The notes below the pieces were generated by a model. That model ran no database searches. It was not told the origin of the DNA and saw nothing but the letters and a program-made list of their open reading frames with translations. A stretch of DNA of 64,000 nucleotides. It comes from Acidobacteriota bacterium (GTDB lineage Bacteria > Acidobacteriota > UBA6911 > RPQK01 > JAJDTT01). A program made the translations under genes and the position numbers. Where the stretch lies: contig CBDCJH010000002.1 in assembly GCA_965217775.1 (NCBI GenBank), forward strand, positions 3,424,001 to 3,488,000. Reading direction: 5' to 3'. This document shows, piece by piece, positions 54 through 40,759 of this stretch. Every line of letters starts with the position of its first letter. Positions within the stretch are counted from its first letter, which is position 1.

Positions 54-1883
54 GTGATGCATACGGAACAGCCTTCCATGGCTGGCCCGGGAGATTCGAA
101 CGGAGGCGCAAACGGCAAGACCGGAGCCGAAGGGGTGCATTGGGACTTGGACGCCCTCTATCCCGATCCGGACTCCCTGGAACGGGATCTGGAACGGACT
201 CAGGACCGGGCCGGCGGTTTCGAGGAACGTTACCGGGGTCGCGTGAGCCGTCTCGATGGCCGTGAGTTGGCTCAGGCCGTCCGCGAGTTCGAAGCTCTGC
301 AGATCGGCCTGGGACGGGCCGCCTCCTATGCCTACCTGCACTGGTGCACCGATACCCAGGATCCTCCCCGCGGCGCCCTCCTGCAGAAGACTCGAGAGGC
401 CTCTACGCAACTGGTTCGAAAAATCCTTTTCTTCGAACTGGAGTGGCTGCAGTTGGACGAGTCGCGAGCGGCCGAGTTACTTTCCACCCCGGAGCTACAG
501 CCCTTCCGACACTACCTGGAGGTGGAGCGGCGCCGGGCGCCCCACGTCCTGAGCGAGTCGGAAGAGAAGATCCTGGCCGAAAAACGGGTCACGGGACGGG
601 CCGCTTGGAACCGCCTGTTCGACCAGATGCACGGTGCTGCCCGCTATGCCTACCGGGACGGAAATCTGACCCGGGAGGAATTGCTTTCCCGCCTGTATCA
701 CTCGGACCGGGAGGTGAGACGGGAATCGGCGCTGGCCTTCAGCCGGGGTCTGGAGGAGCGGGTCAGCGAGATGGCCTTCATCTCCAACACCATGCTGGCC
801 GACAAGGCATGCGACGACCGGCTCAGGAAGTATCCCCACTGGTTGGCCAGCCGGAATCTGGACAACGAGATCGGCGACGAAGCCGTGCAGGTCCTGGTGC
901 AGGCGGTGACCGGACGCTACGACCTGGTGGCCCGCCACTACCGGCTCAAGCAGCGCCTGCTGAAACTGGACGTCTCTTGGGACTATGACCGCTACGCTCC
1001 CGTCGGCATGGCCCCCGCTCGATATTCCTGGGCCACCGCCCGGCGAACCGTGCTGGAGGCGTACGGGGCCTTCCACCCCACCATGGAATCCATCGCCACC
1101 CGTTTCTTCGACGGCCGCTGGATCGACGCTCCCACCAGTCCGGGAAAATCGGGGGGCGCCTTCAGTCACCAGACCGTCCCCCCGGCGCATCCCTACATCA
1201 TGATGAACTACACGGGGAACATTCGGGACGTTCAGACCCTGGCCCACGAATTGGGCCATGGCGTCCACCAGTACCTCTCCCGAACCCAGGGCTACCTCCA
1301 GTCCCGGCCTCCCTTGACCACTTCCGAGACCGCCTCCGTCTTCGGGGAGATGCTGGTCTTCGACCACCTGCTCCGGAACCAGCCGGAGCCCGGGGTCCGG
1401 CTGTCCATCCTGGTGGGCAACATCGATGACACCATGGCCACCGTCTTCCGGCAGATCGCCCTGCACTGCTTCGAGGAGCGGACGCACAACGCGCGGCGAA
1501 GCGAAGGTGAGCTTTCGGTCGAACGCTTCAACGAGCTTTGGATGGAAACTCAAGAGGAGATGTTCCAGGGAAGCGTTCGCCTGGGAGATCACTACGGCAC
1601 CTGGTGGAGCTACATTCCCCACTTCATCCACACCCCCGGCTACGTCTATGCGTACGCCTTCGGCAAGCTGCTGGTCCTGGCCCTCTATGGCCGTTACAAG
1701 CAGAATGCGGACGGATTCGCCGAGGAGTATCTGAGTCTGCTGGAGGCCGGAGGCTCGGACTGGCCACATGTCCAGTTCCAACGCATGGGCGTGGACCTGG
1801 CCGACCCCAATTTCTGGAGCACGGGACTCTCCATGACCGAGGACATGATCCGGCAGGCGGAAGAACTGAGTGAGACCACCTGA
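54..1883 (+). CDS. pepF: M3 family oligoendopeptidase F
   Basis: N-terminal WDLxxLY, zinc motif HELGH with downstream ETAS, C-terminal WSYIPHF..PGYVYAYAFG; ~600 aa. Confidence 0.9.
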   Translation: MMHTEQPSMAGPGDSNGGANGKTGAEGVHWDLDALYPDPDSLERDLERTQDRAGGFEERYRGRVSRLDGRELAQAVREFEALQIGLGRAASYAYLHWCTDTQDPPRGALLQKTREASTQLVRKILFFELEWLQLDESRAAELLSTPELQPFRHYLEVERRRAPHVLSESEEKILAEKRVTGRAAWNRLFDQMHGAARYAYRDGNLTREELLSRLYHSDREVRRESALAFSRGLEERVSEMAFISNTMLADKACDDRLRKYPHWLASRNLDNEIGDEAVQVLVQAVTGRYDLVARHYRLKQRLLKLDVSWDYDRYAPVGMAPARYSWATARRTVLEAYGAFHPTMESIATRFFDGRWIDAPTSPGKSGGAFSHQTVPPAHPYIMMNYTGNIRDVQTLAHELGHGVHQYLSRTQGYLQSRPPLTTSETASVFGEMLVFDHLLRNQPEPGVRLSILVGNIDDTMATVFRQIALHCFEERTHNARRSEGELSVERFNELWMETQEEMFQGSVRLGDHYGTWWSYIPHFIHTPGYVYAYAFGKLLVLALYGRYKQNADGFAEEYLSLLEAGGSDWPHVQFQRMGVDLADPNFWSTGLSMTEDMIRQAEELSETT

Positions 1884-1884
1884 A

Positions 1885-3309
1885 ATGTCCGCCACCCTCT
1901 ACCAGCCCGTGGCAAAAGTCGTCACGGCATTCGACCGTCCCTGCATCCCGGCGGACTGCGTTGCTATCGGCTCACATACTCCCGGTATGCACCCGAATCG
2001 CGCCTTGTCCGGCGGGCGCAGGAACGGTCTCGGTGCTCGCGCGACTTTCACCACGGACTGCTACCGCCGGCGCAAAGGATTGCCGTTCCTCCCAGGCATC
2101 GGTCTCATAGTCATGCTGGCACTCTGTCTCACGGGGCTTCGGGCCGGCGACTGGCCCCAGTTTCTGGGACCGACGCGGGACGGTGTCTACGCGGGGGAGG
2201 ACCTGGCCCGCCAGTGGCCCCCGTCGGGACCTCGCGTGCTCTGGAAACGGGACGTCGGGCAAGGGTTCGCCAACCCCATCGTGGCGGGGGACACCCTGAT
2301 CCTCTTTCACCGGGTGGACGACCGGGACGTGGTGGACGCCCTGGCAGCGGACGACGGCCGGGAGCTGTGGACCTTCTCCTATCCGACCGACTACCGGGAT
2401 GACTTCGGGTTCGACGAGGGACCCCGGGCCAGTCCGGCGGCGGCCGGGGACCGGGTCTATACCTTCGGCGCCCAGGGAATCCTCCAATGCCTGGGCCTGG
2501 GCTCGGGCACCCGGATCTGGCAGGTGGACACCCGGTCCCAATTCCGACCGCGCAAGGGCTTCTTCGGCGCGGCCTGCTCCCCGCTGGTCCGGGACGGCGC
2601 CGTCTACGTCCATGTCGGCGCCAAAGGTGCAGGGGTCGTGGCCTTCGACGCCGACACGGGACGCACCCTCTGGAAGGCCACCGACGACGAGGCGGGCTAC
2701 TCTTCGCCCGTGCACGCGTCCATCGGCGGAGTGCCCCGGATCATCTCCTTCACCCGGAGCGGCGTCGTCTCCATCGATCCGGCCACGGGACGAGTGGGCT
2801 TCCGAGTGCGCTGGCGGTCGCGAAGCCGGGCTTCGGTCAATGCGGCCACGCCCCTCATCGTCGGGGATCAGATCTTCGTGTCGGCCAGCTACAGCACCGG
2901 CGCCCTGCTGCTGGATGCCGCCGGAGAGTCGCCCGAGAAGATCTGGACCTCGAACGACGCTCTCAGCAACCACTACGCCACCAGCGTCTACCGGGACGGG
3001 TATCTCTACGGCTTTCACGGCCGTCAGGAATACGGTCCCAGCCTGCGTTGCGTCGAGTGGCGGACGGGACGGGTCGAGTGGAATCAGGACGGGCTGCGCG
3101 CCGGAACCGTCACTCTGGCGGGAGACCGGCTCCTGATCCTGAACGAGCGGGGAGAGTTGATTCTGGCCGCGGCCGATCCCGAGGGGTTTCAGGTGATCTC
3201 GCGCGCCCAGGTTCTGGAGGGCACGGTGCGTGCCTATCCGGCCCTGGCCCGGGGCCGCCTCTATGCCCGGACCGAGACGGCGCTGGTCTGCATCGACTTG
3301 CGAAAATGA
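1885..3309 (+). CDS. Exported PQQ-like/BamB-type beta-propeller protein with an in-frame MITE in its signal peptide
   Basis: DWPQFLGPTRDG start of mature domain; repeated A.D..TG...W blades; ATG 1885 lies 1 nt after the pepF stop; removing the MITE restores MSATLYRRRKGLPFLPGIGLIVMLALCLTGLRA. Confidence 0.8.
   Translation: MSATLYQPVAKVVTAFDRPCIPADCVAIGSHTPGMHPNRALSGGRRNGLGARATFTTDCYRRRKGLPFLPGIGLIVMLALCLTGLRAGDWPQFLGPTRDGVYAGEDLARQWPPSGPRVLWKRDVGQGFANPIVAGDTLILFHRVDDRDVVDALAADDGRELWTFSYPTDYRDDFGFDEGPRASPAAAGDRVYTFGAQGILQCLGLGSGTRIWQVDTRSQFRPRKGFFGAACSPLVRDGAVYVHVGAKGAGVVAFDADTGRTLWKATDDEAGYSSPVHASIGGVPRIISFTRSGVVSIDPATGRVGFRVRWRSRSRASVNAATPLIVGDQIFVSASYSTGALLLDAAGESPEKIWTSNDALSNHYATSVYRDGYLYGFHGRQEYGPSLRCVEWRTGRVEWNQDGLRAGTVTLAGDRLLILNERGELILAAADPEGFQVISRAQVLEGTVRAYPALARGRLYARTETALVCIDLRK
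1903..2060 (+). mobile_element. 158-bp palindromic MITE, copy 1
   Basis: Imperfect TIRs CAGCCCGTGGCAAAAGTCG / CGACTTTCACCACGGACTG; 4-bp direct repeat CTAC at 1899-1902 and 2061-2064; near-identical copies at 38528 and 38910. Confidence 0.92.
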
Positions 3310-6302: not shown

Positions 6303-6378
6303 GGGCGGTTAGCTCAGCTGGGAGAGCGCCTCCCTTACAAGGAGGAGGTCGGCAGTTCGAACCTGCCACCGCCCACCA
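6303..6378 (+). tRNA. tRNA-Val(TAC)
   Basis: Acceptor stem GGGCGGT/ACCGCCC, D-arm AGCTCAGCTGGGAGAGC, anticodon stem CCTCC-CTTACAA-GGAGG, T-loop GTTCGAAC, encoded CCA. Confidence 0.97.
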
Positions 6379-37297: not shown

Positions 37298-38281
37298 CTA
37301 ACTCAGCACGCCTTCCAGAGGACTGCTGGCCGTGGCGTAGAGCTTGCGGGGAATCCGCCCCGCTTTGTAGGCCAGACGACCCGACTCCACGGCCAGCTTC
37401 ATGCTCCTGGCCATGGACACCGGATCCTTGGCGCCGGCAATGCCGGTGTTCATGAGGACTCCGTCGATCCCCAGCTCCATGGCCAGAGTGGCGTCGGAAG
37501 CGGTCCCGACGCCGGCATCGACGATGACCGGAACCGAGGCGAACTCCAGGATGATGCGGATATTGTTGGGGTTCTGGATGCCGAGGCCCGAACCGATGGG
37601 GGCTCCCAGCGGCATCACGGCGGCGGCTCCCGCATCCTCCAGCCGCTTGCAGACGATGGGGTCGTCGTTGGTGTAGGGGAGCACCACGAATCCTTCCTTG
37701 ACCAGCACGTGCGTGGCTTCCAGCAAGGCTTCGTTGTCGGGGAAAAGCGTGCGCTCGTCTCCGATCACCTCCAGCTTGACCAGATTCGACAGGCCCGCCT
37801 CCCGGCCCAACCGGGCGTATCGGATTGCTTCGGCCGCCGTGTAGCAGCCGGCCGTGTTGGGCAACAGCCGGTAGCGGTTGGGGTCGATGTAGTCCAGGAG
37901 GGATTCCCGGCTTCGGTCGGATATATTGACGCGCCGCACGGCCACCGTCACCAACTCGGCTCCACTGGCCTCCAGCGCCTGCTCCATCTGGCCGAAGGTC
38001 GCGTATTTTCCCGTTCCCACCAGCAAACGGGAGCGATACTCACGTCCGGCTATGGTCAACGTGTCTTCCACGGCCCCTCCTCCCACGAAATGGACGATTT
38101 CGATCCGATCGCCGCTTTGAATCTCGTGCCCGGCCCACCGGGTCCGGCGGACGATCTGCTCGTTGATTTCGACCGCGACCCGACCCCCGTCCAGCTCCAG
38201 GTCCTGAACCAGATCATGCACGCTTCGGCCCCCGTCCAGCTGGTGCCGGCGGCCATTCAGAACGACGTGGATCTTACTCAT
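37298..38281 (-). CDS. thiG: Fused sulfur carrier ThiS / thiazole synthase ThiG
   Basis: N-terminal ThiS fold ending [10 protein letters not shown], continuing without a stop into [26 protein letters not shown]. Confidence 0.92.
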
Positions 38282-38527
38282 TTGCCCGTCGATTTCGCTC
38301 CCAGTCTACTACGACGCCGCGCCCATCTGCCAGCCGGACGGAGCCACCGGCGGCAGGAGATCGGCAACTGCGGGAACCACCGTTCGGCTTCGATGCAACC
38401 GCTATCGGTGCCGCTCATTTGCCAGTCGATGTCCACAGCGGATCTTGCCGACTGCCGTTAACTTCGAAGGTAGTCTGTACGACTTGTCTGATTGTTGAAG
38501 ACCTCTTCTCGTTTGAAGAGTTCGTAT

Positions 38528-38685
38528 CAGTCCGTGGTGAAAGTCGCGCGAGCACCGAGACCGTTCCTGCGCCCGCCGGACAAGGCGCGATGAGGGAGCA
38601 TACCGGGAGTATGTGACCGAGTCGCAACGCAGTCCGCCGGGATGCAGGGACGGTCGAATGCCGTGACGACTTTTGCCACGGGCTG
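38528..38685 (-). mobile_element. 158-bp palindromic MITE, copy 2
   Basis: Same TIRs as copy 1; TSD GTAT at 38524-38527 and 38686-38689. Confidence 0.92.
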
Positions 38686-38909
38686 GTATGCTTCGGGGAG
38701 GAAAATCCGGGCGGATATGATCTCCGCCATGGGGATTACAACTCGAAAATCCTCATACGCCAATCCGGATGACCCTTCAAGGGATTTCCAGATCACAGGA
38801 GCATACGTGGTGGTGATTTCCAACTCCTGCTTGTCTTTATCGCGAAAGCCGCCAGCCATTGGTACGAGTTCGATGTCACCCTCACCCTGGCTTCCGATTC
38901 CGCTCTTGA

Positions 38910-39067
38910 CAGTCCGTGGTGAAAGTCCCGCGAGCACCGAGACCGTTCCTGCGCCCGCCGGACAAGGCGCGATTCGGGTGCATACCGGGAGTATGTGCCC
39001 GAATCGCAACGCCGTCCGCCGGGATGCAGGGACGGTCGAATGCCGTGATGACTTTTGCCACGGGCTG
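38910..39067 (-). mobile_element. 158-bp palindromic MITE, copy 3
   Basis: Same TIRs; TSD TTGA at 38906-38909 and 39068-39071. Confidence 0.92.
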
Positions 39068-39515
39068 TTGAGGGCAAAGCCAATGTAGACCTTCCTGCTA
39101 TTCAGGGCGATCTCAACCAGCTTCTGATCCTCGATAGATTCCGCGACCAGTAGCTCGATGAGGTCTCCATCTCTTTCCGCTGCACGTCGAGCCGCCTTTT
39201 CTTCGTTGTAGAAACGGTTGCCGGCAAACGGTAGCGCGATTCCTAAAAAGGCACTCAGAAAAATGGCCGTAGAAGAGTAAGGGATTGAATCGTACGACTT
39301 CCACGCCAAGTCTATCCAGGGCAGAAAGTAGTTCAGAGGAAGAACGACCAAGTGTGCAATAGCCGCCAGGATGCCGCCGGAAACCGTGGCCCGGAAGAAG
39401 ACATGGTAACCGGAATCACGCAGAGCGTCGTAACGTGTGAAGTGGAGATGGGTCAGAAACCAGTATCCACCAAGAGTCGAGATGAGAAACAGGCCAAGAC
39501 CCAAGGGAAACAGTT

Positions 39516-40759
39516 GGGGATTATATACGTAAGTGCCGAGAATTCAGGCTGATGGGTTACAATTCCGACCATGAAAGGCCACGCAACTATCCAGTGCAGA
39601 GCCAAGCTGTCCAAGGGTGGAATCCGGCGGTTGGACGGGGTGAGGTCCATCCTGAATCGGCTGTACAACGCTGCGCTGGAGGAACGCAGGACGGCCTGGG
39701 AATCCGAGCAACGCGGCGTGACCCTGTACGATCAGATGAAGGGGTTGACCTCCCGGAGGAAGGACGATCCGGAGGGGCTCGGGTCGGTGGCGGTCAAGGC
39801 GGAGCGTGGGATGTTGATGCGGTTGGACCGGGCCTTCAAGGCGTTCTTCCGTCGCTGCAAGGTGGGGGAGAAGCCGGGGTATCCTCGATTCCGGCCCATT
39901 GCGAGGATGGAGACCATCGACGTCGTCGACCCCAAAGCGACCCTGGTGAAGAAGCGCGCTCGGGGCTACGCCATCCGGCCCAAGGGCTTCCCGACGATCC
40001 GGATCTTTCCGTCCCGGCCGTTGCCGGACGGATGCCCGTTGAAAGCGTTGCGGATTGTCCGCAAGCCGAACCGGGTGTATGTGGACCTGACCTACGAGGT
40101 GGAGAAGCCGCCGCTACCGAAATGCGAGTCTTCGGTAGGGATCGACCTGGGCGTCCGCAAGCGAGCGGTGCTGTCCACGGGTGAGAGGATCGAACGGAAT
40201 AGACGGGACTGGGCGGGGATCCGAAAGCAGCAGAGAAAGGTCTCCAGGTGCAAGAAGATTTCCAAGACCAGACGGAAGCGGATCGTACAGCTATCTCGGC
40301 TCCGTCACCGGGAATCGGTCCGAAACCGTAATGCCTGCCATCGTCTCTCCAGCAGGATCATTCGTGAGCATGGTCTGATCGCTGTGGAGAAGCTGAACAT
40401 CCAAGGGATGGTAACGAAGGGCTCGAAGAAGAAGGGGCTGAATCGAGAAATAATGACGCAATCCTGGGGGCTTCTGCGGAATCAACTCCAGTACAAGGCA
40501 GAATGGGCCGGTCGGGAGTTCGTAGAAGTGAATCCCGCATATACATCGCAGGACTGCCACCGGTGCGGCGCCCGCCACGATCCAGGGCGGAGCGAAACCT
40601 TCCGGTGCAGGGCCTGCGGACTTGGAATGGACAGGGACCACAATGCCGCCCTGAACATTCTCAGGGCTGGGGTTCTTGCCCTGGGCACCGGAACGTATCT
40701 CGTTGGGGAAAGCGTGGTGCCAGAACTGTATGCCAAGGGCACTTAGGTATATAAGCCCC
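39516..40759 (+). mobile_element. Non-autonomous TIR element (IS1595-like ends) carrying only tnpB
   Basis: TIR-L GGGGATTATATACGTAAGTGCC (39516-39537) and TIR-R GGCACTTAGGTATATAAGCCCC (40738-40759) match 20/22; TSD AAACAGTT at 39508-39515 and 40760-40767. Confidence 0.9.
39571..40746 (+). CDS. tnpB: RNA-guided endonuclease TnpB
   Basis: LYNAALEER, GYPRF, RuvC-I GIDLG, RuvC-II AVEKL, YTSQ-CxxC..CxxC zinc finger, RuvC-III DRDHNAALNI; TACAAT 7 nt upstream of the ATG. Confidence 0.93.
   Translation: MKGHATIQCRAKLSKGGIRRLDGVRSILNRLYNAALEERRTAWESEQRGVTLYDQMKGLTSRRKDDPEGLGSVAVKAERGMLMRLDRAFKAFFRRCKVGEKPGYPRFRPIARMETIDVVDPKATLVKKRARGYAIRPKGFPTIRIFPSRPLPDGCPLKALRIVRKPNRVYVDLTYEVEKPPLPKCESSVGIDLGVRKRAVLSTGERIERNRRDWAGIRKQQRKVSRCKKISKTRRKRIVQLSRLRHRESVRNRNACHRLSSRIIREHGLIAVEKLNIQGMVTKGSKKKGLNREIMTQSWGLLRNQLQYKAEWAGREFVEVNPAYTSQDCHRCGARHDPGRSETFRCRACGLGMDRDHNAALNILRAGVLALGTGTYLVGESVVPELYAKGT

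Follow-up and report, generated by a model that had tools for sequence, protein, structure and literature searches.

Insertion of a palindromic element into a signal-peptide region

The window (the whole 64-kb stretch of DNA analysed) contains three copies of a short palindromic element, all located within genes and in the sense orientation relative to the host gene (Table 1). Copy 1 lies at the beginning of a gene whose product matches Pfam PQQ_2 (E 6.5e-27). The ATG of this gene is separated by a single base from the stop codon of the preceding oligoendopeptidase F gene, and this gap makes coupling between the two genes likely.

Table 1. Positions of the element copies, their duplications and the genes concerned, numbered from the first base of the window
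Feature	Position	Strand	Remarks
Oligoendopeptidase F gene, 5′ of the host gene of copy 1	54..1883	+	
Host gene of copy 1, predicted secreted PQQ-like/BamB-like beta-propeller	1885..3309	+	474 aa with insert
CTAC target site (4-bp duplication, left-hand copy)	1899..1902	+	near-cognate of the preferred CTAG
MITE copy 1	1903..2060	+	158 bp; forms a long, imperfect hairpin; encodes no transposase; sense strand open in all three frames
Left terminal inverted repeat, 18 bp	1903..1920	+	18/18 matches to one end of L048, L014 and L040
In-frame ATG within copy 1, possible alternative start	1987..1989	+	from sequence and frame translation
Right terminal inverted repeat	2043..2060	+	15/18 matches to the left one; mismatches give antisense TGA
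CTAC, right copy of the 4-bp duplication	2061..2064	+	
3′ part of the Sec-type signal peptide, with basic n-region, hydrophobic core and LRA	2065..2145	+	from orthologue leader alignment
Hypothetical membrane-protein gene with copies 2 and 3	38527..39504	-	no Pfam match
MITE copy 2	38528..38685	-	duplication ATAC at 38524-38527 and 38686-38689
MITE copy 3	38910..39067	-	duplication TCAA at 38906-38909 and 39068-39071; in frame, +54 aa, mid-gene

As had been read from the sequence alone, the 158 bp of copy 1 together with the 4-bp CTAC duplication add 162 bp, i.e. 54 codons, after codon 6, and the ORF is open from 1885 to 3309. Among the 120 listed homologues of the beta-propeller, the seven closest (86-93% identity) lack the 54 residues, being 419-420 aa long vs 474 aa here. 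Their 33-residue leaders correspond to codons 1-6 joined to the RRRK/hydrophobic/LRA stretch that follows the insert, which confirms that the gene without the element encodes a typical signal peptide, and places the start of the host gene 5′ of the element. An ancestral start downstream of the element is excluded by these leaders. The element-encoded peptide was present in none of the 120 best homologues, the sole pattern match being a chance tetrapeptide.

An artefact of assembly or gene calling is extremely improbable. All protein evidence is predicted, which would suit such an artefact; against it stand the perfect and distinct duplication at each site, the recurrence of identical copies in further genomes, and orthologues with an empty site that are shorter by exactly 54 residues.

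The peptide inserted by copy 1 is weakly basic and lacks any hydrophobic stretch: the maximal KD value of a 15-mer is 0.87 in the insert vs 2.59 in the signal core, and the best hydrophobic 15-mer of the protein (residues 68-82) is the core itself, located 3′ of the insert. Pairing of the start region in silico was not raised by the insert (probability of being unpaired 0.58 with the insert vs 0.46 without it). Decay of the host gene was not seen when the mature propeller was compared with the seven orthologues (two private changes at otherwise invariant columns vs two to ten), and a promoter and terminator scan at copy 1 found none.

Copy 1, as a putative survivor, would add 54 residues to the n-region of the signal peptide and leave the core and the cleavage site intact. 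In Sec-dependent export, an insert in the n-region leaves with the leader cleaved off by signal peptidase. The copy is probably tolerated because the predicted signal peptide is removed in this manner; signal peptidase would take off the insert with the leader, and the mature propeller would be unchanged, perhaps at a lower yield.

A different reading, possible but on balance doubtful, is that the allele keeps the frame, is weak or dead, and persists by drift. The approx. 80-bp stem could slow translation, the transcript could undergo cleavage of the RNase III type, or the 87-residue leader could be poorly exported; in a variant, translation restarts at ATG 1987 inside the element. The absence of the insert from the 120 best homologues and the strong overall depletion of in-gene copies (see below) are consistent with such an allele, as is the length of the leader: 88 residues precede the conserved motif, vs a median of 19 and a maximum of 77 in the homologues (101 of 120 measurable). 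In addition, the hairpins of Neisseria and Yersinia MITEs affect mRNA stability via RNase III or E (excerpts of PMC2229807). These points are countered by a start region that is not occluded in silico, by the lack of a hydrophobic stretch able to compete with the signal core, and by the undamaged mature region, the last being weak evidence since decay would not be expected so soon after a recent insertion.

Structure of the element and its partner insertion sequence

The gene carrying copies 2 and 3 is located in a patch of lower GC content (56.5% vs 63%) beside a TnpB gene. Copy 3 is identical to five GTDB copies. In copy 2 the last two bases of the element and the A of the duplication form a TGA codon which ends the host ORF, so that the last 21 host residues are replaced by 52 element residues. 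Homologues of this gene without inserts exist and their tails vary past the point of insertion of copy 2; the truncation therefore affects a poorly conserved end. Two predicted proteins (P0019 and P0021) have an identical ending, and thus this form is common to other strains. P0021 is an allele of the same gene in which only the last 20 codons of copy 3 are left, in frame and flanked by repeated host residues. The adjoining TnpB/IS605 OrfB gene (39571-40746, +) encodes a Cas12f1-like TNB domain; a ThiS-ThiG fusion gene (37298-38281, -) and a tRNA-Val(TAC) gene (6303-6378, +) are also present in the window.

In all three window copies the sense strand is free of TAA, TAG and TGA in any frame, as first proposed for copy 1. 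The accompanying claim that the antisense strand has several stops holds as far as the triplets are concerned (four in copy 1, three to four per window copy), yet one antisense frame of copy 1 is open, as are two in copy 3 (one to two open antisense frames in two of the copies). Stop-free sequences of this length constitute 8.4% of random 158-mers drawn from the window, and arise in 8.5% of dinucleotide and 1.7% of mononucleotide shuffles. The peptides encoded by the element include QPVAKVVTAFDRPC.

The sense-strand RNA of copy 1 has a minimum free energy of -84.4 kcal/mol (z -6.5; none of 200 shuffles was as stable); the fold of the antisense strand is stabler still (-103.6, z -10.1). The antisense fold is also the stabler one in 65 of 66 non-window elements, a bias partly built in by the definition of the left end. 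Across 17 relatives, 13 of the 48 hairpin pairs have changes on both sides, a value reached in none of 500 shuffles, and slid controls were all far lower. The hairpin looks constrained, with the relatedness of the copies as a caveat, and we infer that the length of approx. 158 bp was set by descent, or by what folding or transposition demands of the hairpin, rather than by the reading frame. An Rfam scan of the window revealed only a tRNA, with no meaningful match for the element.

When GTDB genomes were searched with the left 18-mer, at least 102 loci were obtained, 80 of them with full flanks. Among the matches listed, intact elements of 1471-1477 bp (L048/L049, L014 and L040) are bordered by 4-bp duplications and agree with the element in their ends; a similar one, L080 (1533 bp), has an imperfect duplication. 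The L048-, L014- and L040-type elements each contain one ORF, encoding a transposase of approx. 440 aa with DUF772 and DDE_Tnp_1_6 domains. The acidic motifs at residues ~152, 288 and 353 are presumably catalytic. The best NCBIfam model is IS1182, with a score of 178 bits vs a cut-off of 270, which is not reached, and IS5 models score lower; a plasmid homologue (47.5%) is annotated as IS5 family. The partner is therefore called IS1182-like here, a name that does not fix its family. The gene for this transposase was not found in the 64-kb window, and a search of plasmid and phage collections with the element gave no real match.

The palindromic element and the partner IS are alike only in their terminal 16-18 bp, and their interiors show no similarity, which is the usual relation between a MITE and its parent (excerpts of PMC3119063). 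The initial assignment as a MITE is borne out: the element is short, has terminal inverted repeats, a fixed 4-bp duplication and no transposase, occurs in dispersed copies, and can be compared at filled and empty sites. It is a non-autonomous MITE sharing its ends and duplication length with autonomous IS1182-like elements. The IS1182-like DDE transposase would move the selfish MITE in trans via the CAGCCCGTGGCAAAAG ends. Among the matches listed, the L048 genome contains seven MITE copies of the family, four of them identical to window copy 3, and the closest family copies were found in MAGs of Acidobacteriota and Aminicenantes, which points to a probable acidobacterial origin of the window.

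Target sites, gene interiors and stop codons

Among the matches listed, the left duplication conforms to YTAR in 40 of 65 elements (CTAG in 26); in the window, only 8 of the 49 YTAR sites lie within called genes. For a census we used 21 full-length copies of at least 83% identity from seven genomes (among the matches listed), with genes called by a self-trained simple codon model on empty sites rebuilt in silico. The set leaves aside partial or interrupted copies (L017 second match, L030, L033 first match, L036, L056 and L096), 15 relatives below 83% identity, loci with no recognised right end, and L023. In L056 (3001-5316) a family MITE is split by an element of approx. 2.1 kb whose 613-aa transposase resembles P0039, a protein with DruA-like and DDE_Tnp_1-associated domains; the nesting is mutual, as the MITE lies in frame inside P0039-type transposases (P0024, P0025, P0032 and P0039). 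The element or its relatives are arrayed head to tail in L010 (2883-3320), P0051, P0110, P0112 and P0130, the last with up to four units.

Twelve of the 21 family copies are intergenic, six lie on a host stop codon, which the duplication keeps intact, and three are inside genes. From the copies' own target tetramers 13.3 in-gene copies would be expected (binomial p 5e-6, the copies not being fully independent); when five copies with only 160-300 bp of flank are left out, the in-gene share is 3/16. One of the three (L007) is inserted sense and in frame directly behind the signal peptide of a phosphate-selective porin (1663-3177, -), another (L011) antisense and in frame within a transposase gene, and the third (L044, 156 bp) sense and frameshifting in the gene for a probable restriction methylase.

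The family comprises 14 copies of 158 bp, six of 160 bp (six loci in three genomes) and one of 156 bp, so that seven of 21 are off frame, and sense-strand stops are present in 7/21. The duplication is intact in 17 copies and differs at one base in the other four. Of the constancy originally expected, that of the duplication stands (4 bp wherever intact), while that of the length does not (156, 158 or 160 bp). The relatives of 66-81% identity, which occur also in MAGs of Gammaproteobacteria, share the modal length of the family (158 bp in 10/15); five of these 15 were provisionally placed inside genes, on calls with low scores, little flanking sequence or duplications that do not match.

The 29 other elements with the same ends and divergent interiors are never inside genes (0/29), and 12 of them lie on stop codons. 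This count omits L054, an expanded relative called in frame near a gene start, with which the in-gene figure becomes 1/30. The difference from the family (3/21 vs 0/29) gives a Fisher p of 0.07, or 0.17 when only the in-frame copies are counted (2/21). Most of the other same-ended elements have stops on both strands, and those of 158, 159 and 161 bp have one to eight sense stops; lengths of 149, 138 and 118 bp also occur. Same-ended families with different interiors were encountered in Planctomycetota, Thermoanaerobaculia, Bryobacterales and others (L005, L016, L021, L024, L039, L051, L059, L070 and L088). The same-ended lengths (118, 138, 149, 158-161 and 190 bp) are spaced by approximate multiples of 10-11 bp, a possible sign of helical phasing.

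The frequent location on stop codons (6/21 in the family, 12/29 in the other same-ended elements), with several copies lying between convergent genes, might indicate that the hairpin has been retained for a role in RNA at the ends of genes, as a terminator-like or stability element, its in-gene copies being incidental. We regard this as unlikely. The two-sided changes at 13/48 pairs (0/500 shuffles as high) and the better antisense fold in 65/66 elements would agree with such a role, but shared descent or repair of the palindrome could account for the covariation, neither a terminator-like nor a promoter-like site was found at copy 1, no Rfam family matches, and the stop-codon position follows from the target alone.

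Predicted proteins carrying the element peptide are common. It was present in 50 of 64 candidates for the QPV frame and in 11 of 18 for an antisense frame, and a search with the two window frames added 54 element-bearing proteins among its best 150. Public sets thus contain at least 115 such predicted proteins, many of them probably spurious or damaged. In-frame insertion as such is real, since 73 of the 80 predicted proteins with a full-length element peptide read through. In 34 of 46 proteins the residue ahead of the QPV frame is Tyr. TAG and TAA targets in that phase are stops, so that only TAC-type sites read through; the copy-1 target is likewise CTAC and not CTAG, which would itself be a stop, and the Tyr excess is thus explained.

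The 50:11 ratio of sense to antisense frames differs from that of open frames in the DNA copies, 13:21 (p 0.0009); limited to variants in which that antisense frame is open, it is 19-25 vs 11 (p 0.03-0.2). Sense frames are open in 56 and antisense frames in 26 of 63 DNA elements. The sense bias that had been anticipated inside CDSs is seen in predicted proteins (50 vs 11); the three in-gene copies of the census are one sense in-frame, one antisense in-frame and one frameshifting.

Of the 115 proteins, all of them gene-caller products, 79 were submitted to a Pfam scan and 26 gave a match. They comprise transposases, an integrase, porins, sulfatases, proteins of restriction and defence, and others that are for the most part exported. 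None of these 26 annotated hosts belongs to the core translation or replication machinery; one chorismate-binding enzyme bears the peptide behind its domain. The porin insert is common to L007 and P0016, whose hosts are 99% identical and whose duplication has diverged (CCAG/CAAG), which indicates that some inserts persist. This porin is the best candidate for a lasting insert. The variable middle of the element differs between the two porin genes, which hints at conversion between copies.

The sequence-only reading had gone further and described a family shaped to be tolerated inside genes. On the sample of 21 this is not supported: 3/21 copies are in genes vs 13.3 expected, and 7/21 lengths do not preserve the frame. 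Nor did we detect a deficit of stop-creating substitutions in the family (2/65 vs 4.1 expected, p 0.21) or with relatives included (10/140 vs 10.2 expected), and same-ended relatives of 158-161 bp carry stops.

That selection at the level of lineages gave the element its shape (a length of 3n with the duplication, and a stop-free sense strand) for life in proteins is quite unlikely. It could draw on the modal 158 bp of both family and relatives, on the sense excess among predicted proteins, on the three window copies being all intragenic and sense, and on the 0/29 intragenic share of other same-ended MITEs. Moreover, simulated sense insertions at NTAN sites of 11 window genes read through in 220/234 cases; but antisense insertions did so in 159/234 cases for copy 1 and 187/234 for copy 3 (0/234 for copy 2), and a stop-free 158-mer is found in approx. 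8% of random window stretches. The in-gene deficit, the 160-bp copies at six loci in three genomes, the absent deficit of stop-creating changes and the existence of stop-bearing elements of equal length likewise argue against it.

As the majority of family copies are intergenic or occupy stop codons, copy 1 appears to have survived by chance rather than to belong to an element made for life within proteins. In our assessment it is reasonably probable that the element is a selfish MITE mobilised in trans, with a YTAR target that avoids genes, an incidental keeping of the frame, and copy 1 as a tolerated survivor. The transposase would duplicate 4 bp at a YTAR-type site (CTAG, TTAA); in GC-rich genomes such sites would lie mostly between genes or on stop codons, which the duplication spares, and this choice of target would be the main harmless route. 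Since the 158-bp form amounts to 54 codons and is stop-free on one strand, an in-gene copy often keeps the frame. This would be a by-product, letting a minority of in-gene insertions survive where 54 residues do little harm, and most in-gene copies would still be purged, the survivors remaining in leaders, linkers, tails and dispensable genes.

Relation to known repeats and significance of the family

Bacterial MITEs such as Correia/NEMIS, ERIC, YPAL (168 bp), Anabaena MITEs and BOX are, according to excerpts of PMC2229807 and PMC3184786, similarly 100-200 bp long, with terminal inverted repeats, target duplication and a long stem-loop, and are mostly intergenic with some copies fused in frame to ORFs. 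About 90% of bacterial MITEs are given as intergenic in part of bioRxiv 10.1101/2024.01.18.576219, to which the 18/21 copies outside gene interiors found here come close. In contrast to these MITEs, whose duplication is TA, the present family has a 4-bp YTAR-type duplication and an IS1182-like partner found by identical ends, and is spread over Acidobacteriota MAGs.

The partner resembles the IS1182 family (ISPse1, IS1272) and IS5-like DDE elements in having approx. 1.5 kb, one ORF and DUF772 and DDE domains, together with ends of 16-18 bp and a 4-bp duplication (background on IS1182 in excerpts of PMC3281130 and PMC5678879); ISPse1, for instance, is listed with 1653 bp, 16/16 IR and a 4-bp DR (excerpt of PMC3281130). 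It differs in that its transposase scores below the NCBIfam IS1182 cut-off.

The analogy with Rickettsia palindromic elements (RPE) holds for the way single loci work, and fails for the share in ORFs and for conserved hosts. In both cases a hairpin repeat of similar size adds a peptide of approx. 50 residues in frame to unrelated proteins (excerpts of PMC10969869, PMC2229807 and PMC1779305), and the RPE pattern of a ~100-150-bp palindrome with an open frame is matched by the 158-bp hairpin with three open sense frames. As far as the excerpts go, nearly half of RPE lie in ORFs, many in conserved genes, whereas among the matches listed here 3/21 copies are in ORFs and 2/21 in frame, the hosts being accessory or mobile. 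One RPE-bearing protein is described there as translated and active, and the RPE target duplication is listed as unknown; the proteins considered here are predicted, and both duplication and transposase are identified. No rickettsial record was among the at least 102 loci. As the share in ORFs and the conservation of hosts both fail, the element is not classed as an RPE. Coding palindromes of Wolbachia and Methanocaldococcus can be likened to it on the titles of the respective papers.

In-frame fusions to ORFs are already known for RPE, ERIC, YPAL, the 107-bp Correia form, BOX and BRE (excerpts of PMC10969869, PMC2229807, PMC3184786, PMC1779305 and PMC3110155). What is new is the MITE family, of which no description was found in a search of openly accessible literature; the supplement of bioRxiv 10.1101/2024.01.18.576219 may include it.

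A bolder proposal, to which we assign a low probability, is that the 158-bp lineage outcompeted stop-bearing sisters of 159-161 bp because its 3n length and stop-free strand let some in-gene insertions survive; it would then be a coding palindrome of the Rickettsia type that is still active. If so, an active coding palindrome with a known transposase and target would still be adding 54-residue loops to exported proteins, in their leaders and linkers, and some of these loops would persist, e.g. the porin insert of L007/P0016.

For annotation the family carries a warning, since at least 115 predicted proteins contain its peptide. The duplication of a stop codon offers a plain route to harmless insertion. 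With transposase, ends and target identified and identical recent copies at hand, the family is a tractable RPE-like insert, and the same-ended sister families, with other lengths and stop content, are natural controls. Whether coding palindromes are selected or merely filtered thereby becomes testable by census.
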